Below, in pieces: positions 2 through 16,439 of a stretch of 24,000 nucleotides of DNA. Origin of the DNA: Christensenellaceae bacterium (GTDB lineage Bacteria; Bacillota; Clostridia; Christensenellales; Borkfalkiaceae); NCBI GenBank assembly GCA_045613025.1, contig JAZLAE010000013.1:38486-62485 (forward strand). Direction: 5' to 3'. The position numbers were made by a program, and so were the translations under genes. The notes below the pieces were generated by a model. That model was not told the origin of the DNA, did not search any database, and saw nothing but the letters and a program-made list of their open reading frames with translations. Numbering within the stretch: position 1 is the first letter of the stretch; every line of letters begins with the position of its first letter.

Positions 2-1597
2 GATGAAAACGGTAGGCTATCCGCTATCAACTTCAAAAACACCGAAACTTTCAACTTTGGTTTTGATATAGTTGATAAAATTGCCGAAAAATATCCAGAT
101 AAACTTGCAATGCTTCATCTTGATAAAAACAAAGTTGAACGCCGTTTTACCTTTAGGGATATCAAGCGTGCTTCTAACCAAGTGGCTAACTACTTTACTT
201 CGCTTGGCATCAAAAAAGGCGATAAAGTAATGCTTGTACTTAAACGCCATTACGAATTCTGGTTCTGTATGGTTGCCCTTCACAAACTTGGTGCGGTGGC
301 TATCCCTGCAACTAACCAACTTAAACAGCACGATTTTGAATACAGATATAACGCTGCGGGTGTAAAAGCAATCGTTTGTACGGCAGATGGCGATACTTAC
401 ACTTACGCTCAAAGCGCTGCTAAAAAATGCCCTCAAGTAGAAAAACTTTTAATGGTAGGTGGCGCTAAAGACGGTTGGCAAGATTTCAATAAAGAATATC
501 CGCTTTTCAGTGCTCACTTCTACCGCAATGAAGATACTTCTTGTGGTAACGATACTGCGCTTATGTTCTTTACTTCGGGTACAACTGGCAACCCTAAAAT
601 GGCTGCGCACAAACATACTTACGCGCTTGGTCATTTTGTAACCGCTAAGTACTGGCACTGTTGCGAACGCGACGGCTTACACTTAACTATTTCTGATACT
701 GGCTGGGGTAAATCACTTTGGGGTAAACTTTACGGTCAATGGCTTTGCGAAGGTGCGGTATTTGTTTACGACTTTGATAGGTTCGAAGAAAACGACATTT
801 TACCAATGTTTGCAAAATATAACATTACTACTTTCTGCGCTCCACCAACAATGCTCCGTATGCTTATTCGTGGCGACCTTTCTAAGTACGACCTTTCTTC
901 AATCCACCATATGACTACTGCTGGCGAAGCGTTAAACCCTGAAGTATTCAATAAATTTAAAGAAGCAACAGGCCTTGAAATTATGGAAGGTTTTGGCCAA
1001 ACCGAAACAACCCTTGCTATTGCTAACCTTTACGGCACTACACCAAAAATCGGTGCTATGGGTAAGGCAAATCCACAATACGACGTTGACGTAGTTGACC
1101 CAGATGGAAATAGTCTTCCTGCAGGTGAAGTTGGCGAAATCGTTATCCATACGGATAAAGCCGTTCCTTGCGGATTATTTAAAGAATATTATTGTGACGC
1201 TGAAAAAACTACCGATGCTTGGCACGATGGCTTATATCATACAGGCGATACCGCATGGCGCGATGAAGACGGATATTTCTGGTACGTTGGTAGGGTAGAC
1301 GACGTTATCAAGTCAAGTGGTTACCGTATCGGACCTTTCGAAATCGAATCGGTAATAATGGAACTACCTTACGTTTTAGAATGTGGTGTTTCTGCCGTTC
1401 CTGATGAAGTACGTGGCCAAGTAGTTAAAGCAAGCATCGTATTAACTAAAGGCACTGTAGGTTCTGAAGAATTAAAGAAAGAAATTCAACAATACGTTAA
1501 AGAACATACCGCTCCATACAAGTATCCAAGGGTAATCGTATTTAAAGACGAATTGCCAAAGACCATTAGCGGTAAAATCCAAAGAAACAAACTCTAA
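2..1597 (+). CDS. AMP-forming acyl-CoA synthetase, medium-chain (ACSM/MACS-like) family; 5' end cut by the window edge
   Basis: The frame is open from nt 2 (DENGRLSAINFKNTETFNFGFDIVDKIAEKYPDKLAMLHL...). This aligns with the region starting about residue 260 of the 2114..4402 paralog, so the Met at 110 in the ORF track is internal. Adenylate-forming motifs are present: FFTSGTTGNPK, TTAGEAL, GDTAWRDEDGYFWYVGRVDDVIKSSGYRIGPFEIES, PKTISGKIQR. Confidence 0.9.
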   Translation, partial: DENGRLSAINFKNTETFNFGFDIVDKIAEKYPDKLAMLHLDKNKVERRFTFRDIKRASNQVANYFTSLGIKKGDKVMLVLKRHYEFWFCMVALHKLGAVAIPATNQLKQHDFEYRYNAAGVKAIVCTADGDTYTYAQSAAKKCPQVEKLLMVGGAKDGWQDFNKEYPLFSAHFYRNEDTSCGNDTALMFFTSGTTGNPKMAAHKHTYALGHFVTAKYWHCCERDGLHLTISDTGWGKSLWGKLYGQWLCEGAVFVYDFDRFEENDILPMFAKYNITTFCAPPTMLRMLIRGDLSKYDLSSIHHMTTAGEALNPEVFNKFKEATGLEIMEGFGQTETTLAIANLYGTTPKIGAMGKANPQYDVDVVDPDGNSLPAGEVGEIVIHTDKAVPCGLFKEYYCDAEKTTDAWHDGLYHTGDTAWRDEDGYFWYVGRVDDVIKSSGYRIGPFEIESVIMELPYVLECGVSAVPDEVRGQVVKASIVLTKGTVGSEELKKEIQQYVKEHTAPYKYPRVIVFKDELPKTISGKIQRNKL

Positions 1598-1792: not shown

Positions 1793-1821
1793 TTGACACT
1801 TAATTAAAGGTGTGATAAAAT
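1793..1821 (+). promoter_or_regulatory. Sigma-A type promoter with extended -10
   Basis: TTGACA (1793-1798), 17-nt spacer, TGa (1813-1815), TAAAAT (1816-1821). It is correctly placed just upstream of the T-box leader. Confidence 0.7.
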
Positions 1822-1833
1822 ACTATAACAAAG

Positions 1834-2094
1834 ATGTTGATGAAGAGTCGTTCAAATATCGTTTTTTAGAGAGATAACGGTTGGTGCAAGTTATTAAAAG
1901 GGTATTGAATGTTGTAGCTTCTGAATCGGAAGGAAGAAAGCGTTGTCAAGTAGAACCTTCTCGTGATTGCTGCGTTAATGCATACGGGTTGTTAGACCTT
2001 GAGGGGCAGTATGTTACTGCAATTTGAGTGGTACCGCGGGTTTTAGATTTATCTATGCTCGTCTCAAAGTTTTATCTTTGAGACGAGCTTTTTT
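1834..2094 (+). promoter_or_regulatory. T-box leader (tRNA-sensing transcription attenuator); specifier most likely GUA (Val)
   Basis: Elements seen: GA/K-turn motif UGAUGAAG (1838-1845); AG bay AGAGAG (1868-1873); distal hairpin AUAAC-GGUUGGUGCAA-GUUAU (1874-1894). The specifier-side strand UUGUAG (1912-1917) lies directly 5' of CUUC (1918-1921), which pairs with GAAG (1842-1845). The T-box sequence is AAUUUGAGUGGUACCGCGG (2021-2039), followed by an intrinsic terminator. The UGGU bulge predicts an A73 discriminator tRNA. That fits Val, Leu or Ile but not Cys. Confidence 0.85.
2057..2094 (+). terminator. Intrinsic terminator of the T-box 1 expression platform
   Basis: GCTCGTCTCAAAG (2057-2069), loop TTTTAT, CTTTGAGACGAGC (2076-2088), then TTTTTT (2089-2094). 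Confidence 0.85.
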
Positions 2095-2113
2095 GTTTCA
2101 AACGGAGGAAATT

Positions 2114-4402
2114 ATGCAAAATATGATAGGTCTTGATTTAAAAATTCAAGAAATGGCAACAAGAATACGCGAACTTCGCGAAATCGTAGGTCTTTCCACC
2201 ATCGAAATGGCGGAAAAAACTGGCGTTACCGAAGAACAGTATATTCAATGCGAAAACGGTTTATCCGACTTAAACTTCGCTTTCATTTATAGGTGTGCTT
2301 TAGCGTTCAACGTTGACGTTACCGAAATTATCGAAGGTAAAAGCCCTAAACTTAGTTCCTACGTCTTAACAAGAAGCGGTAAAGGTCAAAAAATTGAACA
2401 AGCGCACGGTATGACTTATTATAACTTAGCGTCTACCTTTAGAAATCGTATTGCAGAACCACTTTACGTTGTTAGCGAATACGATGAAAGCGCGCAAAAT
2501 AAAGAAATTGAAGTTACCACTCACACTGGTCAAGAATTTGACTTAGTTGTTGAAGGTGAGTTAAAAATTAAAATCGGTGACCACGTTGAAGTTTTAAAAG
2601 CGGGCGACAGTATTTACTACAACTCTTCAACCCCACACGGTATGATTGCCGTTGGCGGTAAAGACTGTATTTTCTACGCTATCGTATTAAACCCAACTGG
2701 CGAACCTATCCCTGAACTTCAAAAACACCCTGAAAATAAACTTATTAAAGAAGTTGATAAAGACCACGAAAAAAGGGCGTACAGTAAGTTTATCGACACC
2801 GTTGAAGACGAAAACGGTACTCCGCTTTCAATTAACTTTAAAAATCAAGATAAATTTAACTTTGCTTACGATATCTTTGACGAAATCGCTAAAAAGCACC
2901 CAAGCAAACTTGCCCTTTTACATATTTCAAGGGATAAAACCGAACGTCGTTTCTCATTTAGCGATATTAAAAAATATTCTTGTAGGGCTGCTAACTACTT
3001 TAAGTCTTTAGGCATTAAAAAAGGCGATAGAGTTATGCTTGTTCTTGGTAGAGATTATCAATACTGGTACGCTATGCTTGGTTTAAACCGCTTAGGTGCT
3101 ATTGCAATCCCTGCGATGAACCAACTTTTAGCAAAAGACTTTGAATACCGCTTTAATAGTGCGGGCGTATCTGCAATTTTATGTACGGCGCAAGGCGGTT
3201 CTTCATTTCAAGTAGATATTGCAAGCGAAAAATGTCCAGGTCTTAAACATAAAATTATCGTTGGTGGCGAACGCGATGGTTGGAGAAATTTCGACGAAGA
3301 ATGCGAACTTTTCAGCACTCACTTCGAAAGAACTGAAGAAACCGCTGGTGGCGATGATATTATGCTTATGTTCTTTACTTCGGGAACTACAGGCTATCCA
3401 AAAATCGCAATGCACAACTATAAATACGCGCTTGGCCACTTCCACACCGCTAAATACTGGCACGCTGCAAGGCACGATGGTATCCACTTCACTATCAGTG
3501 ATACCGGCTGGGCTAAAGCAATGTGGGGTAAATATTACGGTCAATGGCTTGTTGAAGGGGCTATCTTCGTTTACGACTTTGATAGATTCAATGCAAGTGA
3601 TATTTTACCTATGTTTGCAAAATACAATATCACTACTTTCTGCGCTCCGCCTACAATGCTTCGTATGCTTGTTAAAGAAGATATTTCTCAATACGATTTA
3701 TCTTCAATAAGATATATGACTACCGCTGGTGAAGCACTTAACTTAGAAGTTTACAAACAATTCAAAGAAGCAACCGGTCTTTCTATTATGGAAGGCTTCG
3801 GTCAAACAGAATCAACCCTACTTATCGGCAATATGGTAGGTACTAATACTAAACCTGGTTCAATGGGTAAACCTGTACCTATTTACGATATCCAACTTTT
3901 AGATAGAGAAGGAAACCCTGTACCTAATGGTGAAACGGGCGAAATTTGTATCAATACTCAAAGTGGTAAACCAAACGGTCTTTTCTGCGGATATTATAAC
4001 GACGAAGAAAAAACTAAAGAAGTTTGGTACGATGGCTTCTACCACACTGGCGACCTTGCTTGGCGCGATGAAGACGGCTTCTATTGGTACGTTGGTAGGG
4101 CAGATGACGTTATTAAATCGTCTGGTTACCGTATCGGACCTTTCGAAATCGAATCGGTAATAATGGAACTCCCTTACGTTTTAGAATGTGGCGTTTCCGC
4201 TGCACCTGATGAAGTTCGTGGTCAAGTAGTTAAAGCAAGTATCGTTTTAACTAAAGGTACGGTAGGTACTGAAGAACTCAAAAAGGAAATTCAAGAATAC
4301 GTTAAAAAACGTACCGCCCCTTACAAATATCCACGTGTAGTTGTATTTAAGGACGAATTGCCTAAGACTATAAGCGGTAAAATCCAAAGAAATAAGTTAT
4401 AA
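2114..4402 (+). CDS. Fusion protein: XRE-family HTH + cupin domain + AMP-forming medium-chain acyl-CoA synthetase
   Basis: GGAGG (2104-2108) sits upstream of ATG 2114. The ORF-track start at 2024 runs through the T-box terminator and is rejected. The N-terminus, IRELREIVGLSTIEMAEKTGVTEEQYIQCENG, is a typical HTH_3 segment. Next comes a cupin beta-barrel segment (HTGQEFDLVVEGELKIKIGDHVEVLKAGDSIYYNSSTPHGM). From about residue 260 it continues as a full acyl-CoA synthetase (FFTSGTTGYPK, GDLAWRDEDGFYWYVGRADDVIKSSGYRIGPFEIES, PKTISGKIQR). There is one uninterrupted frame. Confidence 0.85.
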   Translation: MQNMIGLDLKIQEMATRIRELREIVGLSTIEMAEKTGVTEEQYIQCENGLSDLNFAFIYRCALAFNVDVTEIIEGKSPKLSSYVLTRSGKGQKIEQAHGMTYYNLASTFRNRIAEPLYVVSEYDESAQNKEIEVTTHTGQEFDLVVEGELKIKIGDHVEVLKAGDSIYYNSSTPHGMIAVGGKDCIFYAIVLNPTGEPIPELQKHPENKLIKEVDKDHEKRAYSKFIDTVEDENGTPLSINFKNQDKFNFAYDIFDEIAKKHPSKLALLHISRDKTERRFSFSDIKKYSCRAANYFKSLGIKKGDRVMLVLGRDYQYWYAMLGLNRLGAIAIPAMNQLLAKDFEYRFNSAGVSAILCTAQGGSSFQVDIASEKCPGLKHKIIVGGERDGWRNFDEECELFSTHFERTEETAGGDDIMLMFFTSGTTGYPKIAMHNYKYALGHFHTAKYWHAARHDGIHFTISDTGWAKAMWGKYYGQWLVEGAIFVYDFDRFNASDILPMFAKYNITTFCAPPTMLRMLVKEDISQYDLSSIRYMTTAGEALNLEVYKQFKEATGLSIMEGFGQTESTLLIGNMVGTNTKPGSMGKPVPIYDIQLLDREGNPVPNGETGEICINTQSGKPNGLFCGYYNDEEKTKEVWYDGFYHTGDLAWRDEDGFYWYVGRADDVIKSSGYRIGPFEIESVIMELPYVLECGVSAAPDEVRGQVVKASIVLTKGTVGTEELKKEIQEYVKKRTAPYKYPRVVVFKDELPKTISGKIQRNKL

Positions 4403-4530
4403 GCGTCGCAATACTGCGTTTACTGCTTCAAATTTTGACTTTGATGACCAACAAGGTCAATCAAATCCAAAATTTTCGCGAGCCTTGTCTTGCTTGCTTC
4501 TAACTCATTTCTTACATAAACAAATTATAA
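4403..4530 (+). repeat. Structured intergenic repeat, copy B
   Basis: Same layout as copy A: CTGCGTTTACTG, then stems TTTGAT (4440-4445)/ATCAAA (4460-4465) and GACC (4446-4449)/GGTC (4455-4458) around the loop AACAA. The outer stem is AAATTTTG/CAAAATTT, followed by the tail CGAGCCTTG. It ends with ...AAACAAATTATAA, which resembles the 3' end of the synthetase gene. Confidence 0.7.
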
Positions 4531-4655
4531 GCATCGTATTTCTGCGTTTACTGTAAAGTTTTTCGACCACGATAACCAAAAAGGTTTATCGTGTCCGTAA
4601 AACTTTCCGAGCCTTGCCTAACTTGTTTATAGTTCGTTTCTTAATCACACGAAAC
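4531..4655 (+). repeat. Structured intergenic repeat, copy C
   Basis: GCATCGTATTTCTGCGTTTACTG, then the outer stem AAAGTTTT/AAAACTTT, the mid stem CACGAT/ATCGTG and AACC/GGTT around the loop AAAAA, then CGAGCCTTGCCTAACTTGTTTATAGTTCGTTTCT. The stems differ in sequence from copies A and B but remain complementary. Confidence 0.7.
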
Positions 4656-4736
4656 AGGTAGGTCTATCTCAGCCTGTGGTCTACACGAGCCTTTCCTAAC
4701 TTGTTTCTAACTCATTTCTTACAGAAACAAACTAAA
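4656..4736 (+). repeat. Structured intergenic repeat, copy D (partial or degenerate)
   Basis: Keeps the tail CGAGCCTTTCCTAACTTGTTTCTAACTCATTTCTTACAGAAACAAACT, but its hairpin is different and shorter (CAGG...CCTG). The terminal AGAAACAAACT matches the last codons of the 2..1597 gene. Confidence 0.55.
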
Positions 4737-4782
4737 AGATAAAGTATGTTTGTTTTTAAAACTTATTAGTTTGAAATTTCTA

Positions 4783-4811
4783 TTGATAATCAATTTAAAG
4801 TCGATTACAAT
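4783..4811 (+). promoter_or_regulatory. Sigma-A type promoter for the NTPase/oxidoreductase/ilvE operon
   Basis: TTGATA (4783-4788), 17-nt spacer, TACAAT (4806-4811). Confidence 0.6.
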
Positions 4812-4849
4812 TAGATAAGGGGTTATTATATAAAGAAAACAACCACAGT

Positions 4850-4867
4850 TTACAAACTTGTTTGTAA
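4850..4867. promoter_or_regulatory. Perfect 8-bp inverted repeat, candidate operator
   Basis: TTACAAAC-TT-GTTTGTAA, about 40 nt downstream of the predicted -10. The 2-nt spacer is too short for an RNA hairpin loop, so a DNA operator is more likely. Confidence 0.45.
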
Positions 4868-4895
4868 CATCGTTAGTCGCAAGACTACACAGTTT

Positions 4896-4945
4896 TTGCG
4901 CTAGCAAAACACCGTTTGGCGCTAGCCAACTTTGGCAAAGCCAAA
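4896..4945 (+). promoter_or_regulatory. Three tandem short palindromes or hairpins with shared TTGSC/GSCAA arms in the operon leader
   Basis: TTGC-GCTA-GCAA (4896-4907), TTGGC-GCTA-GCCAA (4916-4929), TTTGGC-AAA-GCCAAA (4931-4945). They end 20 nt before the ATG at 4965. Confidence 0.45.
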
Positions 4946-4964
4946 ATATCGTTTAATAATAGTT

Positions 4965-5627
4965 ATGATAAACTTTAAAAGAATTACAATCTTATCAGGG
5001 CATTATGGTAGCGGAAAAACTAACGTTGCCGTAAACCTTGCCTTAGATTTAAAAAAGGTATATAATAAAGTTGCTATAGCGGATATCGACATAGTTAACC
5101 CTTACTTTAGAACCAAAGATAGCGAAGAACTATTGCAGTCTTTAGGCATAAAACTTATTTGTTCAGAGTACGCTAACTCTAACGTAGATATTCCTGCGCT
5201 TCCGCAAGAAATGTATAGCGTAACCGATGATAAGTCCGTACACGCCATACTTGACGTAGGCGGTGATGAACGCGGTGCTTTAGCGCTTGGCAGGTTAGTG
5301 CCTAAAATTAAAGAAGAAAACGATTACGATATGTTCTACGTAATAAATAAGTTTAGGCCGTTAACCCGTGATATTCCGTCGGCTATAGAAGTTTTTGATG
5401 AAATCGAAAACGCGTGCAAACTTAAATTTACGGGAATAATAAATAACTCAAACTTAGGCAAAGAAACTACCCCTGAAGACGTAATATCTTCAGTAGAAAT
5501 TGCCGAAAACTTAGCAAAAACTTTAAACTTACCACTTATTTTCACTTCGGTTACCGAAGAGTTGTATGGCAAAGTAAAAGATAAAATTCAAAACGTGTAT
5601 CCACTTGTGATGCAAAAAAAATTATAA
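4965..5627 (+). CDS. P-loop NTPase (MinD/ParA/CooC-like superfamily), function unknown
   Basis: A Walker A motif lies near the N-terminus (ILSGHYGSGKTNVAVNLA), and a DVGGDE segment resembles Walker B/switch. ATG 4965 is preferred over the TTG at 4932 because it puts the P-loop at the usual distance from the N-terminus. No clear SD is visible. Confidence 0.7.
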   Translation: MINFKRITILSGHYGSGKTNVAVNLALDLKKVYNKVAIADIDIVNPYFRTKDSEELLQSLGIKLICSEYANSNVDIPALPQEMYSVTDDKSVHAILDVGGDERGALALGRLVPKIKEENDYDMFYVINKFRPLTRDIPSAIEVFDEIENACKLKFTGIINNSNLGKETTPEDVISSVEIAENLAKTLNLPLIFTSVTEELYGKVKDKIQNVYPLVMQKKL

Positions 5628-5639
5628 AGGAGTATAGTT

Positions 5640-5846
5640 ATGGCTGTATTAACTTTTAAAACTGATAAATGTAAAGGCTGTGGCTTGTGCGTTGGCGTTT
5701 GCCCTAAAAACGTACTTGCTCTTGCAACAGACAAAATTAACGCAAAAGGTCATCACCCTGTTGAAGCGGTTAACCCTGAAGCGTGCATCGGTTGTGCTTT
5801 CTGTGCAACAATGTGTCCTGATTGTATAATAAAGGTAGAAAGATAG
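5640..5846 (+). CDS. 2x[4Fe-4S] ferredoxin-type delta subunit of 2-oxoacid:ferredoxin oxidoreductase
   Basis: Two cluster motifs, CKGCGLCVGVCP and CIGCAFCATMCP. AAGGAG RBS. 68 aa. Confidence 0.85.
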   Translation: MAVLTFKTDKCKGCGLCVGVCPKNVLALATDKINAKGHHPVEAVNPEACIGCAFCATMCPDCIIKVER

Positions 5847-5858
5847 GAGTATAAAATT

Positions 5859-6920
5859 ATGGCAGATAAAGTTTTAATGAAAGGCAATGAAGCAATTGCA
5901 GAAGCGGCTATCATTGCAGGTTGTAGACATTATTTCGGCTATCCTATTACGCCACAAACAGAAATCGCGGCGTATATGGCTAAAAAGATGCCAAAAATCG
6001 GCGGTACTTTCTTACAAGCAGAAAGTGAAGTTGCCGCTATCAATATGGTATACGGTGTAGCGTCAACCGGTTATAGGGTTATGACGTCGTCTTCAAGCCC
6101 TGGTATTTCGTTAAAGGGCGAAGGCTTATCTTACTTAGCGGGTGCTGATTTACCAGCGCTTGTTGTTAACGTACAAAGGGGCGGTCCTGGTCTTGGTGGT
6201 ATTCAACCATCACAATCAGACTATTTCCAAGCAACTAAGGGTGGCGCACACGGTGACTTCCGTATGTTAGTTTTAGCCCCTGCATCAGTTCAAGAAATGG
6301 CAGAACTTACAGTTAAAGGTTTTGACCTTGCCGATAAATACCGTATGACTACTATGATTTTAGCCGACGGTACTATGGGTCAAATGATGGAACCAGTTTC
6401 TTTAGATTTCAAGGTAGAACCTCCTGTTGAAAAACCTTGGGCGGCTACTGGTACTAATATGCAACGTAAGCACAACGTAATCAACTCTCTTTACTTAAAG
6501 CCTGACCAACTTGAAAAAACTAACTTTGAAAGATTTGAACGTTACGAAATTATCAAAGAAAACGAAGTTATGTACGAAGAATACTTAATTGATGACGCTG
6601 AAATCTGCGTTGTTGCATTTGGTATTGCATCAAGGGTTGCTAAAAACGCTATTAACGAAGCAAGAAGCCAAGGCATTAAAGTTGGGTTAATTAGACCTAT
6701 CACACTTTGGCCTTTCCCTGAAAAAATCATTAACAAGGTTGCAGATAAAGTTAAATCGTTTATCTCTGTAGAACTTTCTATGGGTCAAATGATTGAAGAT
6801 ATCCGTTTAGCAGTAAACGGCAAAGCACCTGTTACTTTGTGTAACCGTTCGGGCGGTATGATACCTTCACCTGAACAAGTTTTAGAAGCAATCAAAAACG
6901 CTAACGGAGGTAAAAACTAA
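5859..6920 (+). CDS. 2-oxoacid:ferredoxin oxidoreductase alpha subunit (VorB/KorA-like)
   Basis: The N-terminus LMKGNEAIAEAAIIAGCRHYFGYPITPQTEI is typical of the alpha subunits of this family. The size is about 350 aa, and the gene lies in the order delta-alpha-beta-gamma. Confidence 0.85.
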   Translation: MADKVLMKGNEAIAEAAIIAGCRHYFGYPITPQTEIAAYMAKKMPKIGGTFLQAESEVAAINMVYGVASTGYRVMTSSSSPGISLKGEGLSYLAGADLPALVVNVQRGGPGLGGIQPSQSDYFQATKGGAHGDFRMLVLAPASVQEMAELTVKGFDLADKYRMTTMILADGTMGQMMEPVSLDFKVEPPVEKPWAATGTNMQRKHNVINSLYLKPDQLEKTNFERFERYEIIKENEVMYEEYLIDDAEICVVAFGIASRVAKNAINEARSQGIKVGLIRPITLWPFPEKIINKVADKVKSFISVELSMGQMIEDIRLAVNGKAPVTLCNRSGGMIPSPEQVLEAIKNANGGKN

Positions 6921-7660
6921 TGGTAGTATTCGATAAACCAAAGTCACTTGTTGACGTTCCTTTACATTATTGCCCAGGTTGTACACACGGTATCGTTCAC
7001 CGTTTAGTTGCCGAAGTTATCGACGAACTTGGTATCGAAGGTAAAACTATCGGTATTGCACCCGTTGGTTGTGCGGTTATGGCTTACGATTATTTCGCTT
7101 GCGATATGATTGAAGCAGCGCACGGTAGAGCGCCTGCTGTTGCTACTGGTGTTAAGCGCGCGTTACCTGATAACGTAGTATTCACTTACCAAGGCGACGG
7201 CGACTTAGCGTCAATCGGTATGTCTGAAACAGTTCACTCTGCTGCAAGAAACGAAAACATCACTATTATCTTTATCAACAACGCAATTTACGGTATGACT
7301 GGTGGTCAAATGGCACCTACTTCTCTTCCTGGTCAAGTAACTCAAACTTCACCTTATGGTAGAGATACTAACCTTTGCGGTTTCCCTATCAAAGTTTGCG
7401 AAATGCTTTCACAACTTGACGGCCCTGAATATCTTGAAAGGGTAGCGGTTAACAACGTTAAAAATATCAAAAACGCTAAAAAAGCAATCAAGAAAGCCTT
7501 CCAAAACCAAATTGATAAAAAAGGTTTCTCTCTTGTAGAAGTTGTTTCAAGTTGCCCAACTAACTGGGGCTTAACTCCTGAAAAAGCATTACAATGGATT
7601 GATGAAAAAATGATACCTTACTATCCTTTAGGCGTATACAAGGATAGGTCGGCGAAATAA
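6920..7660 (+). CDS. 2-oxoacid:ferredoxin oxidoreductase beta subunit (TPP-binding)
   Basis: TPP motif GDGDLASIGMSETVHSAARNENITIIFINNAIYGMTGGQ, and an N-terminal CPGC cluster ligand region. The start shares one nucleotide with the upstream stop (TAATG). Confidence 0.85.
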   Translation: MVVFDKPKSLVDVPLHYCPGCTHGIVHRLVAEVIDELGIEGKTIGIAPVGCAVMAYDYFACDMIEAAHGRAPAVATGVKRALPDNVVFTYQGDGDLASIGMSETVHSAARNENITIIFINNAIYGMTGGQMAPTSLPGQVTQTSPYGRDTNLCGFPIKVCEMLSQLDGPEYLERVAVNNVKNIKNAKKAIKKAFQNQIDKKGFSLVEVVSSCPTNWGLTPEKALQWIDEKMIPYYPLGVYKDRSAK

Positions 7661-7673
7661 GGGGGCAATTAAA

Positions 7674-8210
7674 ATGAACGAAAAATATTTATTTGCCGGT
7701 TTCGGCGGTCAAGGTATATTATTCTCTGGTAAAGTTTTAGCGTATAAAGGTCTTACTGATGGCAAAAACGTAAGTTGGCTTCCATCATACGGCCCTGAAA
7801 TGCGTGGTGGTACTGCAAGTTGTAGCGTTATCGTAAGTGATAACCCTATCGGTTCACCTATCGTTTCTAATCCTGAAATTTTAATAGCAATGAACCTTCC
7901 ATCTCTTGATTTATACGAAGATAGAGTAACAAGTGGCGGTATGATTTTCGTTGACTCATCACTTGTTGATAGAAAGGTTAATAGAACTGACGTAAAAGCA
8001 TTTTATATCCCTGCAACAAAACTTGCATCGGATAACGGAATTCCAACCCTTGCAAATATGATTATTATGGGTAAGGTTTTAGCGGAAACTAACGGCTTTA
8101 ACGATGAAAACGGCGTAAGAAACGCTTTAACTAAAGTTATTTCAGCAAAGCGTGCCGATATGTTAGAAGTTAACCTTAACGCTATGAAGTTGGGTAGAGA
8201 CTTCAAATAA
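7674..8210 (+). CDS. 2-oxoacid:ferredoxin oxidoreductase gamma subunit
   Basis: [17 protein letters not shown]...[18 protein letters not shown] is typical of gamma subunits. GGGGG-type RBS. Confidence 0.85.
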
Positions 8211-8241: not shown

Positions 8242-9306
8242 ATGGAAATTAAAATCACTAAAACTACAAGTCCTGCGGTTAAACCAGACAGTAGTATTTT
8301 AGGTTTCGGTAAATACTTTACCGACCATATGTTTATAATGGATTATTCGGCTGACAAAGGTTGGCACGATGCAAGAATAGTACCGTTTGGTAGAATTGAT
8401 ATTCACCCAGCATCAACAGTACTTCACTACGGCTCTGAAATCTTTGAAGGTTTAAAAGCATATAGAACAAAAGATGGTAGCGTACAACTTTTCCGTCCGC
8501 TTGAAAACATTAGAAGAATGAACCGCTCAGCAGAACGTATGTGTTTACCTGAAATCCCTGAAGATATGGCACTTGAAGCGTTAACTACCTTTATCAAAAT
8601 GGAACAAGACTGGGTTCCATCTGCACCAGGTACTTCACTTTATATCCGTCCGTTTATGTTCGGTAACGATGAAACTTTAGGTGTTCACGCCGTTAAAAAC
8701 GCTAAATTTGTTATTATAACTTCACCTGTTGGTAGTTATTATAAAGAAGGCATTAACCCTGTTAAAATTATGATTGAATCTGAAGACGTACGTGCCGTTC
8801 GCGGTGGTACGGGCGAAGCAAAATGCGGTGGTAACTACGCTGCAAGTAATAGGGCAGGCGAAAGGGCAGAAAAGAAAGGTTACTCTCAAGTATTATGGCT
8901 TGACGGTGTTGAAAGAAAATACATCGAAGAAGTTGGCGCAATGAACGTTATGTTCAAAATCGCAGGCGAAATCGTTACGCCTAAACTTGCAGGTTCAATT
9001 CTTCCAGGTATTACAAGAAAATCTATCCTTGAACTTTTACAAAAAGAAGGTTATAAGGTTTCTGAAAGACTTATCTCTGTTGATGAACTTGCCGAAGCAA
9101 TGAAAAACGGCACGCTTGAAGAAGCATGGGGTTGCGGTACTGCAGCCGTTGTTTCACCTATCGGTGAACTTTGCTATCAAGACGTTAAATACTCTATCAA
9201 CAACGGTAAAATCGGCGAAGTTACTCAACACTTATACGATACTTTAACAGGTATTCAATGGGGTAATAAGGAAGATGTATTTAATTGGGTTTACCCAATT
9301 AAATAA
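8242..9306 (+). CDS. ilvE: Branched-chain amino acid aminotransferase (fold type IV)
   Basis: About 354 aa, with family-typical segments YGSEIFEGLKAYR, LYIRPFMFG, EAKCGGNYAAS, GITRKSILEL, GTAAVVSPI. AAAGGAG RBS. Confidence 0.85.
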   Translation: MEIKITKTTSPAVKPDSSILGFGKYFTDHMFIMDYSADKGWHDARIVPFGRIDIHPASTVLHYGSEIFEGLKAYRTKDGSVQLFRPLENIRRMNRSAERMCLPEIPEDMALEALTTFIKMEQDWVPSAPGTSLYIRPFMFGNDETLGVHAVKNAKFVIITSPVGSYYKEGINPVKIMIESEDVRAVRGGTGEAKCGGNYAASNRAGERAEKKGYSQVLWLDGVERKYIEEVGAMNVMFKIAGEIVTPKLAGSILPGITRKSILELLQKEGYKVSERLISVDELAEAMKNGTLEEAWGCGTAAVVSPIGELCYQDVKYSINNGKIGEVTQHLYDTLTGIQWGNKEDVFNWVYPIK

Positions 9307-9440
9307 GCCGTTATTTGCTGCGTCTATCTGCGTTTCTGCAAAGTGGTTTTGATTTCAATGACCAACAAGGTCTATTTCATCCAAAACCATTTGCGAGCCT
9401 TGATATACTTGCAACTAACGCCTTATTACGTACTTAATTT
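9307..9440 (+). repeat. Structured intergenic repeat, copy E
   Basis: Starts right after the ilvE stop: CTGCGTTTCTG, outer stem GCAAA(G)TGGTTTT (9338-9350)/AAAACCATTTGC (9383-9394), GACC-AACAA-GGTC core, then CGAGCCTTG... The mid stem is partly decayed. Confidence 0.65.
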
Positions 9441-9554: not shown

Positions 9555-9600
9555 GAGCCTTGCCTAACTTGTAACTAACGCCTTATTACGTAAATTTAAT
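9555..9600 (+). repeat. Structured-repeat tail fragment, copy F
   Basis: GAGCCTTGCCTAACTTGTAACTAACGCCTTATTACGTA duplicates 9395-9432. It has only the tail and no hairpin. Confidence 0.6.
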
Positions 9601-9713: not shown

Positions 9714-9726
9714 ACTTAAAAATAAA

Positions 9727-9989
9727 CGCGATGAAGCGAAATAGTAAGTAAATTTTCTTGCTTTTAGAGAGATGCTGGTTGGTGCAAGGCGTTAGAAGAA
9801 TTTTACCGAACTCGTCGCAGAGCGGTTGCCGTGAAAGGTTAGTAGTGGCAAACGGGAACTCCCGTAAAAGAGTTAGGTGTGTTTGCACCAAAGTGCGCTT
9901 TCTTAAGCGAATAAGAGTGGTACCGCGGAAATAGTTTATCCTAAACGTTTTCGTCTCTTTAAGAAGTAAGGAGACAAAAGCGTTTTTTT
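9727..9989 (+). promoter_or_regulatory. T-box leader, specifier CUC (Leu)
   Basis: GA motif GCGAUGAAGCGAA (9728-9740); AG bay AGAGAG (9766-9771); distal loop GGUUGGUGCAA (9777-9787). The specifier loop 3' side is GAA-CUC-G (9808-9814), directly 5' of UCGC (9815-9818), which pairs with GCGA (9736-9739). The T-box sequence is AAUAAGAGUGGUACCGCGG (9911-9929), followed by a terminator. The UGGU bulge is compatible with A73 of tRNA-Leu. Confidence 0.88.
9946..9989 (+). terminator. Intrinsic terminator of the T-box 2 expression platform
   Basis: CGTTTTCGTCTC (9946-9957) pairs with GAGACAAAAGCG (9971-9982), followed by TTTTTTT (9983-9989). CGGAAA (9925-9930) can pair with TTTTCG (9948-9953) as the antiterminator. 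Confidence 0.8.
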
Positions 9990-10023
9990 ATTTCTATTAC
10001 CACAAAATTAAAGGAGATTTATT

Positions 10024-11409
10024 ATGAAAAAAATCGATATTATTGACGTTACGCTTAAAAAACTCTCAGAAGAACGCGAAGTTGCGCTTTTATTCCGTGA
10101 AAAATCTGCTATTGCTACAAAAGCCGATTTATTAGGTGCTGACGTTATTGAACTTCCTGCAGTTAAAAACTTCCGTGAAGATGCAATTATCTATAAAACT
10201 ATTTCTCAAAACGTTCAAAACGCTATTTTAACAATCCCTGTTGGCTTTGATAAAGAAAGCGTTGCTAACGCTTGGGAATGTGTTAAATTTGCTAAAAAAC
10301 CACGCTTACAAATCGAACTTCCAGTGTCTACTATTCAAATGGAATATACTTACCACGTTAAGCAAGAAAAAATGCTTGATAAAATTGTTGCGCTTATTAA
10401 AGAAGCAAAAAATTATTGTGAAGACGTAGAGTTTTCTGCGCTTGATGCAACAAGGGCTGACGTTAATTTCTTATTAACTGCAGTTAAAACTGCTGAAGAA
10501 AACGGCGCTACCGTTATTAACGTTTGTGATAACGCGGGCAACTCAACCCCTGAAGAAATCGCTTCGCTTGTTGAAAAAATTAAAGGCGTTGTTTCTATTC
10601 CACTTTACGTTCAAGTATCTAATCGCGTATTTATGGGCGTTGCTTCGGCTTTTTCTGCTATCACTAAAGGCGCAGACGGTTTAAAATGCGCTATTGATGG
10701 TAAAGACGTTCTTATTACTGGCGAAATTTGTGATGCCGTTTCAGTTTGCGGTGCAACTATCGGTGCAAAAATCAATCTTAACACTACTAAAATTCACGCA
10801 AGCATCGAAGATGTCCTTTCTAAAATCAATCATAAAGACTTATCCGCTACAAGCATAAGTGATAAAAACAAAATTTTACTTGACAGCGACGCTACTTTAA
10901 AAGACGTATTAACTTCTGCTACCGCACTTGGCTATGACCTTACTGAGTCTGATGCGGGTAAAGTATTTAATGCGCTTGTTAAGGTTTGTGAGAAAAAAGG
11001 TGCTATCGGTTCAAAGGAATTTGAAGCGCTTATTGCAAGTAACGCAATGCAAGCACCATCTACTTACCACTTTGAAACTTACACAACAACAAGCAGTAAC
11101 GTTTCAACTTCTATGTCGCAAGTAACTTTAAAAAGAAACGGAGAAATCATCTCTGGCGTTAGTTCGGGCGACGGTCCTATCGACTCTGTTTTCCGTGCTA
11201 TAGAACAATGTATCGGTCACCACTACGAACTTGATGATTACCAAGTTCAATCGGTAACCGAAGGTAAAGAAGCGTTAGGTTCAGCGCTTGTAAGACTTCG
11301 CAACAACGGCAAACTTTATTCTGGTAACGGTACTTCAACCGATATCGTTGGTGCAAGTATTAGGGCGTATATTAACGCGCTTAATAAAATCGTAGCCGAG
11401 GAGGCGTAA
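10024..11409 (+). CDS. LeuA/HMGL-like protein with degenerate catalytic motifs and an intact LeuA C-terminal regulatory (dimerisation) domain
   Basis: AAGGAGA RBS. The fold-level resemblance to 2-isopropylmalate synthase is clear: IDIIDVTL..., VEFSALDATR, INVCDNAGNSTPEE, KGADGLKCAIDG. The C-terminal part, GDGPIDSVFRAIEQ...YQVQSVTEGKEALGSALVRL...GNGTSTDIVGASIRAYINALNKI, is a typical LeuA_dimer domain. However, DTTLRDGEQ is replaced by DVTLKKLSE, the HxH metal site by QVS, and no HESGIHQDG-like motif is seen. Confidence 0.75.
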   Translation: MKKIDIIDVTLKKLSEEREVALLFREKSAIATKADLLGADVIELPAVKNFREDAIIYKTISQNVQNAILTIPVGFDKESVANAWECVKFAKKPRLQIELPVSTIQMEYTYHVKQEKMLDKIVALIKEAKNYCEDVEFSALDATRADVNFLLTAVKTAEENGATVINVCDNAGNSTPEEIASLVEKIKGVVSIPLYVQVSNRVFMGVASAFSAITKGADGLKCAIDGKDVLITGEICDAVSVCGATIGAKINLNTTKIHASIEDVLSKINHKDLSATSISDKNKILLDSDATLKDVLTSATALGYDLTESDAGKVFNALVKVCEKKGAIGSKEFEALIASNAMQAPSTYHFETYTTTSSNVSTSMSQVTLKRNGEIISGVSSGDGPIDSVFRAIEQCIGHHYELDDYQVQSVTEGKEALGSALVRLRNNGKLYSGNGTSTDIVGASIRAYINALNKIVAEEA

Positions 11410-11410
11410 T

Positions 11411-13873: not shown

Positions 13874-13881
13874 AGGTTAAA

Positions 13882-14041
13882 GGCTCTGTCACAATAAACG
13901 GTTAATAAATAGCAAATGAAATACTGCGTAATACGTTGTTAAAGCCCTTGAAAAGATGTATACTCTTATCTACGGGCTTTGCCTAGTCTTACTTGCATTT
14001 GCTTTGCTATTTTAAAATCAACCTAATATTGTGACATCGCC
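13882..14041. repeat. Nested long palindrome enclosing a diverged copy (G) of the intergenic repeat
   Basis: Outer arms GGCTCTGTCACAATA (13882-13896)/TATTGTGACATCGCC (14027-14041), with a perfect 10-bp core. Middle arms AGCAAATG (13911-13918)/CATTTGCT (13996-14003). Inner arms AAAGCCC (13941-13947)/GGGCTTT (13974-13980). AATACTGCGT and GGGCTTTGCCTAGTCTTACTTG resemble copy B/C flanks. Confidence 0.65.
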
Positions 14042-14055
14042 ATAGGAAAATTATT

Positions 14056-14862
14056 ATGATAAATGGAAAATACTACGCGATAGACGCGCATTGCCATATC
14101 TATCCCGAAAAAATCGCCAAACTTGCCGTTGACCATACAGATAATTTTTATAGCGAACACTCATATAACAAAGGCACGCTTGAAGATTTAATTTCGGCAA
14201 GTGATATCGCGGGTGTTGATAAATGTATTATTCAATCGGTGGCAACAACGCCTAAACAAGTTCAAAGCATAAACAAATTTATTAGCGATAGCGTGCAAGC
14301 GCACGGGGATAGATTTGTTGGCTTAGGCACTATCCATCCACGCTCTTTAGATATTGAAGGGGATATAGAACATTTAATAGAACTTGGCTTAAAGGGTATA
14401 AAAATCCACCCTGATATTCAAAACTTCAAGGTGGACGACGACGGCTATAAACAAGCGTATAAAATTTGCGAAAAGAAAGGCTTACCCGTTTTAATGCACA
14501 CGGGGGATAATAGATACGATAATTCTAATCCAAATAGAATTATACCTATATTAAATGAGTTTAAAAATTTAATGGTAGTAGGCGCACACTTTGGCGGTTG
14601 GTCTATTTGGGAAGAAGCAAGTGAAAAGTATAAAAACTACGATAACTTTTTCGTGGATACTTCTTCAAGTTTACACTACATCGATTTAGATACGGCTAAA
14701 ATGATAGTTGATAACTACGGCGTTGATAAACTTATGTTTGCAACAGATTACCCTATGTGGAACGCAAAAGACGAAATCGAAACCATTTTAAAACTTAACT
14801 TAACTGAAGACGATTACATTAAAATCTTTTCTAAAAACGCCGAAAAGGTGTACAAAATATAA
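14056..14862 (+). CDS. Amidohydrolase-2 family TIM-barrel metal-dependent hydrolase
   Basis: N-terminal HxH (IDAHCHIYPE), later His/Asp ligand candidates (KIHPD, LMHTGD, GAHFGG, FATDYP). AGGA RBS. 268 aa. Confidence 0.75.
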   Translation: MINGKYYAIDAHCHIYPEKIAKLAVDHTDNFYSEHSYNKGTLEDLISASDIAGVDKCIIQSVATTPKQVQSINKFISDSVQAHGDRFVGLGTIHPRSLDIEGDIEHLIELGLKGIKIHPDIQNFKVDDDGYKQAYKICEKKGLPVLMHTGDNRYDNSNPNRIIPILNEFKNLMVVGAHFGGWSIWEEASEKYKNYDNFFVDTSSSLHYIDLDTAKMIVDNYGVDKLMFATDYPMWNAKDEIETILKLNLTEDDYIKIFSKNAEKVYKI

Positions 14863-16084: not shown

Positions 16085-16111
16085 AAACGTGTCTCCTAAT
16101 AACTATAATAA

Positions 16112-16140
16112 ATGATATCATAAACGCTAAAAAAATTCAA
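16112..16140 (-). promoter_or_regulatory. Candidate sigma-A promoter for the aminotransferase gene
   Basis: On the minus strand: TTGAAT (16140-16135), 17-nt spacer, TATCAT (16117-16112). Confidence 0.5.
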
Positions 16141-16169
16141 TAAAATACGTGATTATTTTAAAAAAACAA

Positions 16170-16198
16170 TTGACTTTTAAAAAAAATAGGAATATACT
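16170..16198 (+). promoter_or_regulatory. Sigma-A type promoter of the aro operon leader
   Basis: TTGACT (16170-16175), 17-nt spacer, TATACT (16193-16198). Confidence 0.65.
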
Positions 16199-16220
16199 CT
16201 TTGCTATAAGGAACAAGATT

Positions 16221-16280
16221 ATGAAAAAATTTGCTAACACTTATTATTTTGCATATTACTTTTTTAGACCTGATTTTTAA
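16221..16280 (+). CDS. Candidate leader peptide MKKFANTYYFAYYFFRPDF (Phe/Tyr-rich) of an attenuator
   Basis: AAGGA (16208-16212) lies 8 nt before the ATG. There are 19 codons, 9 of them Phe or Tyr, concentrated in codons 8-15. It lies between the promoter and a terminator, upstream of a Phe/Tyr biosynthesis operon. It is not in the supplied ORF track because it is too short. Confidence 0.6.
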   Translation: MKKFANTYYFAYYFFRPDF

Positions 16281-16342
16281 TATCGGTTATTTTTGCGTTC
16301 TTTAAATTTTTTAAAAAAAGTTATAAAAGATGTATTTTAAAT

Positions 16343-16370
16343 GACCGAATTTCAAGTTCGGTCTTTTTTT
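16343..16370 (+). terminator. Intrinsic terminator (attenuator segments 3:4) upstream of aroF
   Basis: GACCGAA (16343-16349), loop, TTCGGTC (16357-16363), TTTTTTT (16364-16370). It lies 70 nt upstream of the aroF start, so it is a leader terminator. Confidence 0.8.
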
Positions 16371-16439
16371 ATTTTAAATTATTTTTATAGATATTAAAAA
16401 AAATCAATATATTACTATACTACTTAAGGAGAATATGTT

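Follow-up and report, generated by a model that had tools for sequence, protein, structure and literature searches.

A branched short-chain acyl-CoA synthetase fused to an XRE-cupin module heads a putative valine-salvage operon behind a T-box in gut Clostridia

Introduction

XRE-cupin proteins are known from published work as local repressors that form conserved gene pairs with their targets (PMC7901475). Described members, among them PuuR and SutR of E. coli, ErfA, PsdR and PauR of Pseudomonas and the protein of structure 1y9q, combine a five-helix XRE helix-turn-helix (HTH), a linker and a cupin, typically in stand-alone chains of 180–200 aa. An HTH-type domain and a metabolic enzyme are also found in one chain in the trigger enzymes BirA, NadR and PutA. 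Among branched-acid CoA ligases, the medium-chain acyl-CoA synthetase MacsMa of Methanosarcina acetivorans (PDB 3ETC) prefers 2-methylbutyrate (PMC10455477). At the level of RNA, the T-box ilv-leu operons of Firmicutes carry a cognate specifier ahead of the genes for synthesis of the amino acid concerned.

Rumen and gut anaerobes reductively carboxylate isobutyrate, 2-methylbutyrate and isovalerate to valine, isoleucine and leucine, and their need for branched short-chain fatty acids has been known for decades. The window described here, a stretch of 24,000 nucleotides from a Christensenellaceae bacterium, carries an acyl-CoA synthetase (ACS) bearing an N-terminal HTH-cupin module (N-module), placed behind a T-box leader (Table 1).

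Table 1. Features of the fusion locus in the window
Feature	Position	Strand	Basis
Fusion A, paralogous acyl-CoA synthetase, 3′ part (531 aa)	2..1597	+	Pfam AMP-binding, AMP-binding_C
Structured intergenic repeat copy, after the fusion A stop codon	1614..1726	+	Repeat families D4-D6, motif search
Sigma-70-type promoter, TTGACA, 17 nt, TG-n-TAAAAT	1793..1821	+	11/12 matches, upstream TG present
T-box leader, predicted valine-specific	1828..2069	+	Rfam RF00230, 105.7 bits
Intrinsic terminator of the T-box, 13-bp stem and U-run	2057..2096	+	Terminator search, Rfam alignment
Fusion B, XRE-cupin::acyl-CoA synthetase, 762 aa	2114..4402	+	ORF, Pfam, orthologue alignment
XRE-like HTH domain, five helices, aa 13-76	2150..2341	+	Pfam, marginally above cut-off; AF2
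Cupin beta-barrel, aa 92-192	2387..2689	+	Pfam Cupin_2; invariant columns; pLDDT 90-98
Cupin-enzyme tether, variable, low-confidence, aa about 196-222	2699..2779	+	Column identity, AF2
Complete adenylate-forming short/medium branched-chain acyl-CoA synthetase, aa about 215-762	2756..4399	+	PDB 3ETC, motifs
530-nt intergenic insert, mostly three structured-repeat copies	4403..4931	+	Repeat analysis, locus comparison
P-loop NTPase, CbiA/ParA/Mrp-like, conserved operon member	4932..5627	+	Pfam
2-Oxoisovalerate:ferredoxin oxidoreductase (VOR), four subunits	5640..8210	+	Pfam, NCBIfam
VorD	5640-5846	+	Pfam
VorB	5859-6920	+	NCBIfam PRK07119, 547.7 bits, cut-off 399
VorA	6920-7660	+	Pfam
VorC	7674-8210	+	Pfam
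IlvE, branched-chain amino acid aminotransferase	8242..9306	+	NCBIfam PRK13357, 492.5 bits, cut-off 307

Results

Architecture of the fusion protein

Fusion B is read from an ATG at 2114, with GGAGGA upstream at 2104–2109, to a stop codon at 4400–4402, and the claim of an earlier note on this DNA that one frame joins an HTH, a cupin and a complete ACS is borne out by the open reading frame and by Pfam matches above their cut-offs, all four expected families being detected in the 762-aa protein. Specifically, HTH_3 matches aa 18–72 (27.8 bits, cut-off 23), Cupin_2 aa 131–190 (47.6 bits, cut-off 27.2), AMP-binding aa 255–628 (217 bits) and AMP-binding_C aa 678–756 (75.8 bits), with HTH_19 additionally matching aa 17–76 (31.7 bits, cut-off 30.2). 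A listed TTG start at 2024 is a mechanical artefact, lying inside the T-box, and orthologues align from residue 1. The tether between cupin and enzyme shows a column identity of 0.67 with indels, and its pLDDT falls below 50 at aa 204–213.

A frameshift or misassembly merging two separate genes might be suspected, as other taxa carry stand-alone XRE-cupin and ACS genes about 20 nt apart. The same full-length architecture is however found in at least 80 species-level genomes, each assembled independently, and in 120 of the 120 top protein clusters, which excludes an assembly artefact as the source of the fusion; full-length fusions of 759–766 aa with the tether retained, in 80 genomes and in the 120 clusters, effectively refute this explanation and leave it a negligible probability. 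As hundreds of genomes share the architecture, its rarity is weakened, but no characterisation of an HTH-cupin-ACS protein was found in the literature searched, and databases label it no further than 'AMP-binding protein' or 'acetyl-CoA synthetase'. The unstudied fusion occurs widely among uncultured gut Clostridia.

MacsMa is the nearest match to the enzyme half, the two aligning end to end (E 6.6e-187), and this half displays the ANL hallmarks, comprising AMP-binding, AMP-binding_C, core motifs A3, A5, A7 and A8 and the A10 lysine; the core motifs in the translation read TSGTTGYPK, GFGQTE, YHTGD, GRADDVIKSSGYRIGPFEIE and PKTISGKIQR. Its best NCBIfam model is MbcS (NF047394), but the 442.9 bits scored fall short of the 850 required and mark a relative, not an equivalog. 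Together, homology and motifs show the predicted product to be an intact acyl-CoA synthetase for branched short-chain acids, of the MacsMa/ACSM type. A preference for branched C4–C5 acids is suggested by the closest characterised homologues and by the Val T-box, VOR and IlvE context, and isobutyrate is the candidate substrate on the basis of the T-box and operon, not of the active site.

Promoter and T-box leader

The near-consensus promoter and the full T-box leader described in the earlier note are both confirmed. The promoter layout TTGACA-17-TGnTAnAAT is common to all 80 orthologous leaders, the spacer itself not being conserved, and RF00230 is matched above its gathering score of 93 across the full model (1–219; E 9.7e-23). 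The specifier is GUA (Val) at 1914–1916, followed by G1917, and all 80 orthologous leaders examined have GUA followed by G or A, while the flanks vary. The T-box sequence UGGUACCGCG is located near 2029–2038, and GAGUGGUACCGCGGG matches the T-box consensus (UGGN bulge) in the Rfam alignment. The terminator (2057–2088) consists of a 13-bp stem followed by TTTTTTGTTT, terminator and antiterminator forming mutually exclusive alternatives. These elements show, at the level of predicted signals, a gene whose transcription starts at a strong promoter of constitutive type and passes through a T-box specific for valine, and the leader would sense uncharged tRNA-Val.

A T-box had seemed out of place on an acyl-CoA synthetase. 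This no longer applies, because the synthetase, as the first enzyme of a putative valine-salvage operon, stands behind a Val specifier, following ordinary amino-acid-operon T-box logic. The fusion A leader carries an Ile (AUC) specifier in 56/56 loci, and the leader of a third unit a Leu specifier (CUC/CUG) in 33 loci.

Operon context and origin of the fusion

Fusion B heads an operon with the P-loop protein, VorDBAC and IlvE in 69 of 76 loci, the P-loop NTPase lying 3′ of the fusion and the median gap being 11 nt; VOR is absent 3′ of the fusion in 7 of 76 loci and in distant fusions. The gap 3′ of fusion B, occupied in the window by the 530-nt insert, is far shorter in most other genomes (≤60 nt in 61/69). 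The insert also contains a promoter-like site at 4783–4811 and a palindrome at 4850–4867. On the left side, the N-terminus of fusion A lies beyond the window edge; its orthologues in 52 related loci are full HTH-cupin-ACS fusions behind an Ile (AUC) T-box, and their N-modules are about 53–57% identical to that of fusion B in the window. The relatives are MAGs from rumen, caecum and faeces. No phosphonate-biosynthesis genes are found in the window or in 80 related loci.

An exhaustive phmmer search yields relatives of about 184 aa that align over aa 10–192 of the fusion, and the ACS-linked XRE-cupin clade, taken at E≤1e-10, comprises 631 cluster representatives, fused and stand-alone. In 7/7 looked-up contexts and 73/73 evaluable metagenome loci the stand-alone gene is followed immediately, on the same strand, by an ACS gene; it opens a two-gene operon whose ACS is 40–56% identical to the enzyme half of the fusion. 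The N-module is a fused version of this XRE-cupin protein, which across phyla is always encoded directly upstream of this ACS subfamily. In a neighbour-joining tree all fusions form one clade, very distant from PuuR, and the fusion appears, from its sequences, to have arisen once. The stand-alone cassettes lack a T-box, so something else must regulate them.

Structure and conservation of the N-module

The AF2 model of the N-module (pLDDT 88) consists of five helices (6–25, 29–36, 40–47, 55–65 and 69–74) and a barrel. The HTH fold and its R22–E47 pair are intact and under purifying selection, and mean column identity (HTH 0.81, cupin 0.83, ACS N-domain 0.86) shows a module maintained, as judged from conservation, almost as strictly as the ACS N-domain. 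The HTH carries a net charge of −6, with family means of −5.8, −6.4 and −4.1, against +2 for PuuR, +4 for SutR, +4 for the 434 repressor and +3 for 1y9q (four controls only); the HppE alpha-domain carries −3. Its putative recognition helix reads TEEQYIQCE, the equivalents of 434 residues Q28/Q29/S30/Q33 being E/E/E/Q in the window, with the last an A in most orthologues. E40/E41/E42 and D52 occupy helices 2–3 and the following loop, where a polar or basic DNA-contact surface would be expected, and an invariant Asp replaces Lys/Arg of the 434 repressor. Entropy reaches 1.8 bits at the DNA-contact-equivalent positions and 0.5 bits in the rest of the HTH, whose most conserved surface is formed by helices 4–5 (DLNFAFIYRCA, 80/80) rather than by the recognition helix. 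In the distant fusion P0287, Pfam detects no HTH domain.

The cupin retains H137, Q140, E141, D165 and H175 as invariant residues in fused and stand-alone members, and H137/E141/H175 align as a 2-His-1-Glu set with the metal ligands of HppE. The top Foldseek neighbours of the N-module are HppE, Psf4, HEPD and MPnS (HppE-type match E 7.4e-15, TM 0.46–0.51, sequence identity about 22%), tied with 1y9q, which is annotated as a regulator and is also the best PDB sequence match. DNA-binding PuuR retains the same H/E/H pattern, so the triad is not diagnostic of catalysis. Per 100 aa, the HTH holds 9.4 conserved differences between the paralogues, the cupin 4.8, ACS-N 1.8 and ACS-C 0, and their concentration in the N-module may, with low confidence, reflect ligand specificity. 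Invariant pocket residues together with paralogue-specific barrel changes suggest that selection maintains a binding site for a ligand or metal. The full-length AF2 model gives no confident docking of the N-module onto the enzyme (pTM 0.62).

Discussion

The earlier note proposed a BirA-like trigger enzyme. In such a model the N-module would be a dimeric XRE-cupin repressor that binds DNA at its own promoter or at other genomic sites, with isobutyrate, isobutyryl-AMP/CoA or valine as the signal for its release or recruitment. Homology to XRE-cupin regulators, with 1y9q as best PDB sequence match and HTH_3/HTH_19 above their cut-offs, argues for this, as does an HTH conserved as well as the enzyme; the stand-alone relatives, which open two-gene ACS operons without a T-box, need other regulation. 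The family moreover consists of local repressors with conserved regulator/target pairs (PMC7901475 and PMC12565409), so that a conserved XRE-cupin/ACS pair is also what a transcription-factor model predicts. Both proposed operators nevertheless fail. The ACAC-N10-GTGT at 1796–1813 exists, but it is composed of the −35 tail (TTGACAc) and the extended −10 element (gTGtGATAAAAT) and is not conserved, orthologous promoters mostly reading TTGACAA; the palindrome TTACAAAC-TT-GTTTGTAA at 4850–4867 likewise exists, but it resembles a local repeat motif inside an insert missing elsewhere and occurs in 0 of 93 loci compared. No conserved dyad is found in 136 fused-gene promoters and 81 stand-alone upstream regions, a search whose power is limited if operators co-vary with the variable helix; the only dyads above shuffles are ACAA-N10-TTGT (16/80), which derives from the promoter, and UP-like elements made of T-runs and A-runs. 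The acidic HTH carries Glu at phosphate- and base-contact equivalents and Asp for the 434 Lys/Arg, its DNA-facing positions are the most variable of the domain, Pfam misses it in P0287, and the promoters of the fused genes are near-consensus, as is typical of attenuation-only control. The evidence for a BirA-like DNA-binding role is weak, and we regard the trigger enzyme as rather unlikely; equally doubtful is the AND gate that it would form with the T-box, joining precursor availability to valine demand.

Two further alternatives concern the role of the N-module. It could be an oligomerisation or stability domain left from the ancestral partner, with no ligand-dependent regulation today, as the HppE fold match and the conserved surface of helices 4–5 would allow; the HTH-like alpha-domain in the 2005 HppE structures reportedly serves assembly, not DNA binding. 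The invariance of H137, E141, H175, Q140 and D165 and the conserved paralogue-specific changes in the barrel speak against this and make it improbable. More improbable still is a bifunctional protein whose cupin acts as an HppE-like mononuclear-metal enzyme on the acid or acyl-CoA, for example by isomerisation or epimerisation: its top Foldseek matches are metal-dependent enzymes and its 2-His-1-Glu set aligns with the HppE ligands, but PuuR keeps H/E/H while binding DNA, isobutyrate and the three-step pathway need no extra chemistry, and the context holds no phosphonate genes. The hosts being gut anaerobes, oxygen-dependent cupin chemistry is also unlikely.

Between DNA binding and a ligand-sensing module that acts on the enzyme, the balance tips slightly towards the latter, and we give somewhat better than an even chance to the joint reading, a Val-T-box isobutyrate salvage operon with a fused sensor acting mainly on the enzyme. 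Following known enzymology, uncharged tRNA-Val would cause T-box antitermination and synthesis of the salvage enzymes, whereupon exogenous isobutyrate would be converted to isobutyryl-CoA by fusion B, to 2-ketoisovalerate by the reductive carboxylation of VOR and to valine by IlvE. The tandem paralogue would lead from 2-methylbutyrate to isoleucine by the same route under the Ile T-box, and the third unit would serve leucine under the Leu T-box. The N-module may be a small-molecule sensor, probably metal-assisted, for a pathway metabolite, an assignment held with low confidence, and would act mainly on the tethered enzyme, for instance by subjecting adenylation to feedback or to gating by substrate, and not as a classical operator-binding repressor. 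Control would thereby be divided, transcriptional through the T-box and post-translational through the N-module. HppE, Psf4, HEPD and MPnS are precedents for proteins with an HTH-like domain and a cupin other than transcription factors. A tentative extension, possible but rated below an even chance, holds that the whole ACS-linked 'XRE-family transcriptional regulator' clade consists of ligand-gated ACS subunits or domains with the HTH repurposed as an acidic protein-interaction module, the gut Oscillospirales fusions exerting Val (B) or Ile (A) feedback on the first ATP-consuming salvage step, atop the T-box.

The locus presents a complete regulated gene set, comprising three amino-acid-specific T-boxes, two sensor-fused CoA ligases, VOR and IlvE, in largely uncultured lineages (Acutalibacteraceae, Oscillospiraceae and Christensenellaceae), and the salvage model is relevant to gut cross-feeding. 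A single XRE-cupin clade and a single ACS subfamily are thus strictly paired, and here fused, in an unstudied regulatory module. Should the N-module bind DNA, it would define a new trigger enzyme in which the sensing of precursor is joined to tRNA-charging control; otherwise, the label 'transcriptional regulator' would be wrong for hundreds of annotated proteins that regulate enzymes instead.

Comparison with known systems

With the XRE-cupin repressors the N-module shares its five-helix HTH, linker and cupin, and its stand-alone relatives are of similar length, adjoin a metabolic enzyme gene and keep H-x3-E...H. The module differs from them in being fused to a 550-aa enzyme, in an HTH charge of −6 against +2 to +4, and in that no palindromic operator was found. 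BirA is likewise adenylate-forming and shares the architecture of fusion B without homology, pairing a winged helix with a class II aaRS-like fold where fusion B pairs an XRE HTH with an ANL fold; fusion B, moreover, descends from a two-gene cassette and shows no operator. HppE, Psf4, HEPD and MPnS share with the N-module an acidic HTH-like domain and the aligned 2-His-1-Glu set, but they are phosphonate metalloenzymes, whereas the fusion hosts are anaerobes and nothing indicates catalysis by the N-module.

On the enzyme side, the 3ETC chain of MacsMa, aligned from residue 20, does not span the N-module, and MbcS of Staphylococcus aureus, which activates branched short acids, has a profile matched by aa 251–762 only, again without the N-module; compared with both, the role of the fusion operon would be amino-acid salvage, not fatty-acid priming. 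The ilv-leu operons serve a de novo route, whereas here the T-box would control a salvage route in which ACS, VOR and IlvE act on branched short-chain fatty acids, an arrangement of which no description was found in the literature searched. Classical reductive carboxylation shares with this locus both habitat and predicted chemistry, to which the locus adds a complete set of genes together with their regulation.

Architecture and conservation of fusion B

The fusion B gene is one uninterrupted frame of 762 aa with a GGAGGA motif 5 nt before its start. Pfam matches the HTH, the cupin and both segments of the acyl-CoA synthetase (ACS) within it, and a promoter and a full-length T-box precede it, so that the single-frame layout described in the earlier note is borne out in each of its parts. 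The same architecture is found in 120 of 120 top protein clusters (73-100% identity), and a scan of species-representative genomes yields at least 587 confirmed relatives. Among these, the 80 best matches are all full-length fusions; they come from MAGs of rumen, caecum and faeces, each assembled independently, and belong to Acutalibacteraceae, Oscillospiraceae, Ruminococcaceae and Christensenellaceae. Together, the clusters and these full-length fusions rule out an assembly error as the origin of fusion B. The HTH-cupin-ACS architecture is common in gut MAGs but appears to be undescribed, literature searches for it returning nothing relevant.

The enzyme half carries the full set of ANL core motifs and is closest to MacsMa (PDB 3ETC, E 6.6e-187), an acyl-CoA synthetase with a preference for 2-methylbutyrate (PMC10455477). 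Its best NCBIfam model is MbcS, a staphylococcal branched-acid CoA synthetase, with a score below the equivalog cut-off.

Features of the window (nucleotide positions unless marked aa, which refers to fusion B)
Feature	Position	Strand	Basis or remark
Fusion A, enzyme half	2-1597		truncated ORF
Structured intergenic repeats	1614-1726, 4410-4531, 4548-4660, 4686-4738, 9347-9432, 9555-9592	+	
Promoter TTGACA-17-TGnTAAAAT	1793-1821		upstream of fusion B
T-box, full-length	1828-2069		Rfam, 105.7 bits vs gathering score 93
T-box terminator	2057-2088		
Fusion B	2114-4402	+	762 aa
HTH_19/HTH_3	aa 17-76		Pfam, scores only just over cut-offs
Cupin_2	aa 131-190		Pfam
AMP-binding	aa 255-628		Pfam
AMP-binding_C	aa 678-756		Pfam
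P-loop NTPase	4932-5627		231 aa, CbiA/ParA/Mrp-like
Second T-box, Leu (CUC)	9722-9961		Rfam
LeuA-like protein	10024-11409		short, 461 aa
Second unusual fusion	11411-13873		820 aa
Amidohydro_2 protein	14056-14862		
Class I/II aminotransferase	14897-16084	minus	

A valine T-box and a predicted salvage operon

On the 3' side of fusion B lie genes for a P-loop NTPase, VorD/B/A/C and IlvE, with VorB passing its NCBIfam model. This gene set follows the fusion in 69 of 76 evaluable related loci, and the intervening gap is at most 60 nt in 61 of those 69 (median 11 nt), a spacing that indicates a single operon. A T-box HMM built from the Rfam matches and run against all loci places a T-box about 50 nt upstream of the fusion B orthologue in 80 of 80. 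Alignment of the specifier region reads U-GUA-R (valine) before fusion B, AUC (isoleucine) before its tandem paralogue fusion A in 56 of 56, and CUC/CUG (leucine) before a third unit in 33 loci.

T-boxes normally control amino-acid biosynthesis operons, and a T-box on an ACS gene had been singled out earlier as an anomaly. The anomaly dissolves once the downstream genes are considered: the ACS begins a valine salvage operon under a valine specifier, and because ACS, VOR and IlvE would together make valine, the T-box is in its usual employment. In the simplest reading, drawn from established enzymology, uncharged tRNA-Val would switch on the pathway, the fusion B enzyme would convert isobutyrate to isobutyryl-CoA, VOR working in the reductive direction would produce 2-ketoisovalerate, and IlvE would yield valine. 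No paper describing a T-box with VOR was found in the literature searched. With good confidence, fusion B is the enzyme that opens a salvage operon from isobutyrate to valine under Val T-box control, and it bears, in fused form, the partner protein of a conserved XRE-cupin/ACS cassette.

In the 69 related loci where VOR genes lie downstream, the P-loop NTPase gene separates the fusion from VorD. The protein is weakly similar to the iron-sulfur carrier MrpORP and may serve VOR specifically, in Fe-S maturation or as an accessory factor. Seven loci (L016, L017, L030, L049, L056, L058 and L065) have the Val T-box and fusion B with no P-loop/VOR/IlvE genes within 2-10 kb downstream, so the fusion can be a single-gene T-box unit; the VOR genes of those genomes may lie elsewhere.

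Origin of the N-terminal module

The HTH-cupin part of fusion B (N-module, aa 1-205) matches 3249 cluster representatives in an exhaustive phmmer search, 631 of them at E<=1e-10. The best matches are fusions or fusion fragments, followed by stand-alone XRE-cupin proteins of about 184 aa (35-46% identity, aligned over aa 10-192). All seven diverse stand-alone members that were looked up, annotated as Clostridia, Deltaproteobacteria, Ignavibacteriales and Prolixibacteraceae, have an AMP-binding gene of about 550 aa directly downstream on the same strand, usually after 17-22 nt, and their other neighbours are unrelated. With the metagenome scan added to these contexts, an ACS 40-56% identical to the enzyme half directly follows the XRE-cupin gene in 73 of 73 loci with enough downstream sequence; these stand-alone loci contain no T-box. 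Fusion B is accordingly a widespread two-gene cassette in fused form.

The truncated ORF at the left end of the window is the enzyme half of fusion A, whose orthologues are likewise HTH-cupin-ACS fusions. A neighbour-joining tree of the N-module gathers all fusions, including distant ones at 41-47% identity, into a single clade, which suggests one fusion event followed by duplication and rules out recurrent independent fusion as a sign of physical interaction. The distant fusions lack VOR context, and L176, the one with a readable upstream region, lacks a T-box, so the T-box/VOR association belongs to the Oscillospirales-type clade. A T-box as universal partner of the fusion is likewise ruled out, being absent from this distant tandem fusion and from all stand-alone cassettes. 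The L176 locus (2111-7978) encodes two tandem cupin-ACS fusions (769 and 758 aa), their HTH barely or not detected by Pfam, followed by a class I/II aminotransferase, again without VOR; the layout suggests the same sensor-ACS theme for another acid-to-amino-acid route.

Candidate operators

Neither operator proposed in the earlier note holds up. The ACAC-N10-GTGT element (1796-1813) consists of the tail of the -35 box (TTGACAc) and the extended -10 element (gTGtG); 80 aligned orthologous promoters mostly read TTGACAA with an unconserved spacer, and the general form ACAA-N10-TTGT occurs in only 16 of the 80. The palindrome at 4850-4867 is absent from the 93 other loci compared and sits in a 530-nt insert made of a genome-specific repeat, whose motif it resembles. 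An unbiased dyad search (k = 4-6, spacer 0-14, compared with shuffles) finds no conserved palindrome in 136 fused-gene promoters or 81 stand-alone upstream regions, the only dyads above shuffles being promoter/UP-like elements and the Bacteroidetes-type -7 box TAATATTG; no inverted repeats are shared among seven stand-alone upstream regions. In roughly half of the fusion A (Ile) promoters a dyad of T-run, 1-5 nt and A-run stands just upstream of the -35 box. Its form TTTTT-N3-AAAAA, present in 28 of 56, is the sole enriched 'palindrome' and is read as UP-element-like.

Role of the HTH and cupin domains

That the N-module is the DNA-binding part of a classical trigger enzyme, in line with the BirA-like role suggested earlier, is slightly the less probable of the two main readings. 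In its favour, the module is homologous to XRE-cupin regulators (best PDB sequence match 1y9q), a family of local repressors in which the pairing of regulator and target is conserved (PMC7901475), and is nearly as constrained by purifying selection as the enzyme (mean column identity 0.81 for HTH, 0.83 for cupin, 0.86 for the ACS N-domain). Against it, beyond the failed operators and the missing palindrome, the HTH is strongly acidic, with a net charge of -6 in the window protein and means of -5.8 (fusion B), -6.4 (fusion A) and -4.1 (stand-alone); controls are +2 (PuuR), +4 (SutR), +4 (434 repressor) and +3 (1y9q), and the non-regulatory HppE alpha-domain, on which literature searches returned nothing relevant, is -3. 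Alignment places E40, E41, E42 and Q45, the last replaced by Ala in most orthologues, at the equivalents of Q28, Q29, S30 and Q33 of 434 repressor, and the basic loop gives way to an invariant Asp52. Within the domain, variability peaks at the DNA-facing positions (1.8 bits vs 0.5 elsewhere in the HTH), helices 4-5 are invariant (DLNFAFIYRCA in 80 of 80), and in one distant fusion Pfam no longer detects the HTH.

A ligand sensor acting on the tethered enzyme is slightly favoured over DNA binding, with low confidence. Conserved differences between the valine and isoleucine paralogues are concentrated in the N-module, and this sequence pattern suggests that each of the two modules has its own pathway-specific ligand or partner. 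A model of the N-module (pLDDT 88) matches the metalloenzymes HppE, Psf4, HEPD and MPnS and the regulator 1y9q about equally. The cupin triad H137/E141/H175 is invariant, as are Q140 and D165; PuuR keeps the same H/E/H pattern, so the triad does not discriminate between roles. A full-length AF2 model (pTM 0.62), made to see whether the module packs against the enzyme, shows no confident docking: the tether is disordered or of low confidence and the C-domain is poorly modelled from a shallow alignment. A catalytic or a purely structural N-module is a minor alternative.

Other features of the window

The leucine T-box precedes the LeuA-like gene and a second unusual fusion, in which an AP_endonuc_2/xylose-isomerase-like TIM barrel (aa 20-231) is joined to a PRK12583-type acyl-CoA ligase, with the Amidohydro_2 gene downstream. 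This block (9722-14862) is kept in about 33 related loci and may be a leucine-directed route from isovalerate; in L084 its unfused version (AP_endonuc_2, 267 aa; AMP-binding, 554 aa; Amidohydro_2) adjoins a stand-alone XRE-cupin/ACS cassette.

The intergenic repeats are about 95-125 nt long, each just 3' of the stop codon of a plus-strand gene, and comprise a long hairpin, whose arms vary between copies in a compensatory manner (e.g. CTTGGTGACC/GGTCTACCAAG vs CACGATAACC/GGTTTATCGTG), and after it a GAGCCTTGCCTAACTTG motif. The predicted fold of one copy has an energy of -30.7 kcal/mol (z = -2.7). Almost all related genomes lack the motif, L002 and L050 being the exceptions, and the repeats have no Rfam match at the gathering threshold; they could be REP-, MITE- or 3'-UTR stabiliser-like elements. 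The block 14897-23969 comprises the aminotransferase and then a complete operon for aromatic amino acids (DAHP synthase, prephenate dehydrogenase, DHQ synthase, EPSP synthase, chorismate synthase, chorismate mutase/prephenate dehydratase, plus an additional ORF), with no Rfam leader detected upstream of 16440.

Relation to known systems

The T-box, ANL synthetase, XRE-cupin, VOR and IlvE are known parts; no earlier description appears to exist of the fusion, of the strict pairing of XRE-cupin and ACS genes from which it derives, or of branched-acid salvage under three T-boxes. Rumen bacteria carry out classical reductive carboxylation of branched acids, and the ACS/VOR/IlvE route predicted for the window matches it.
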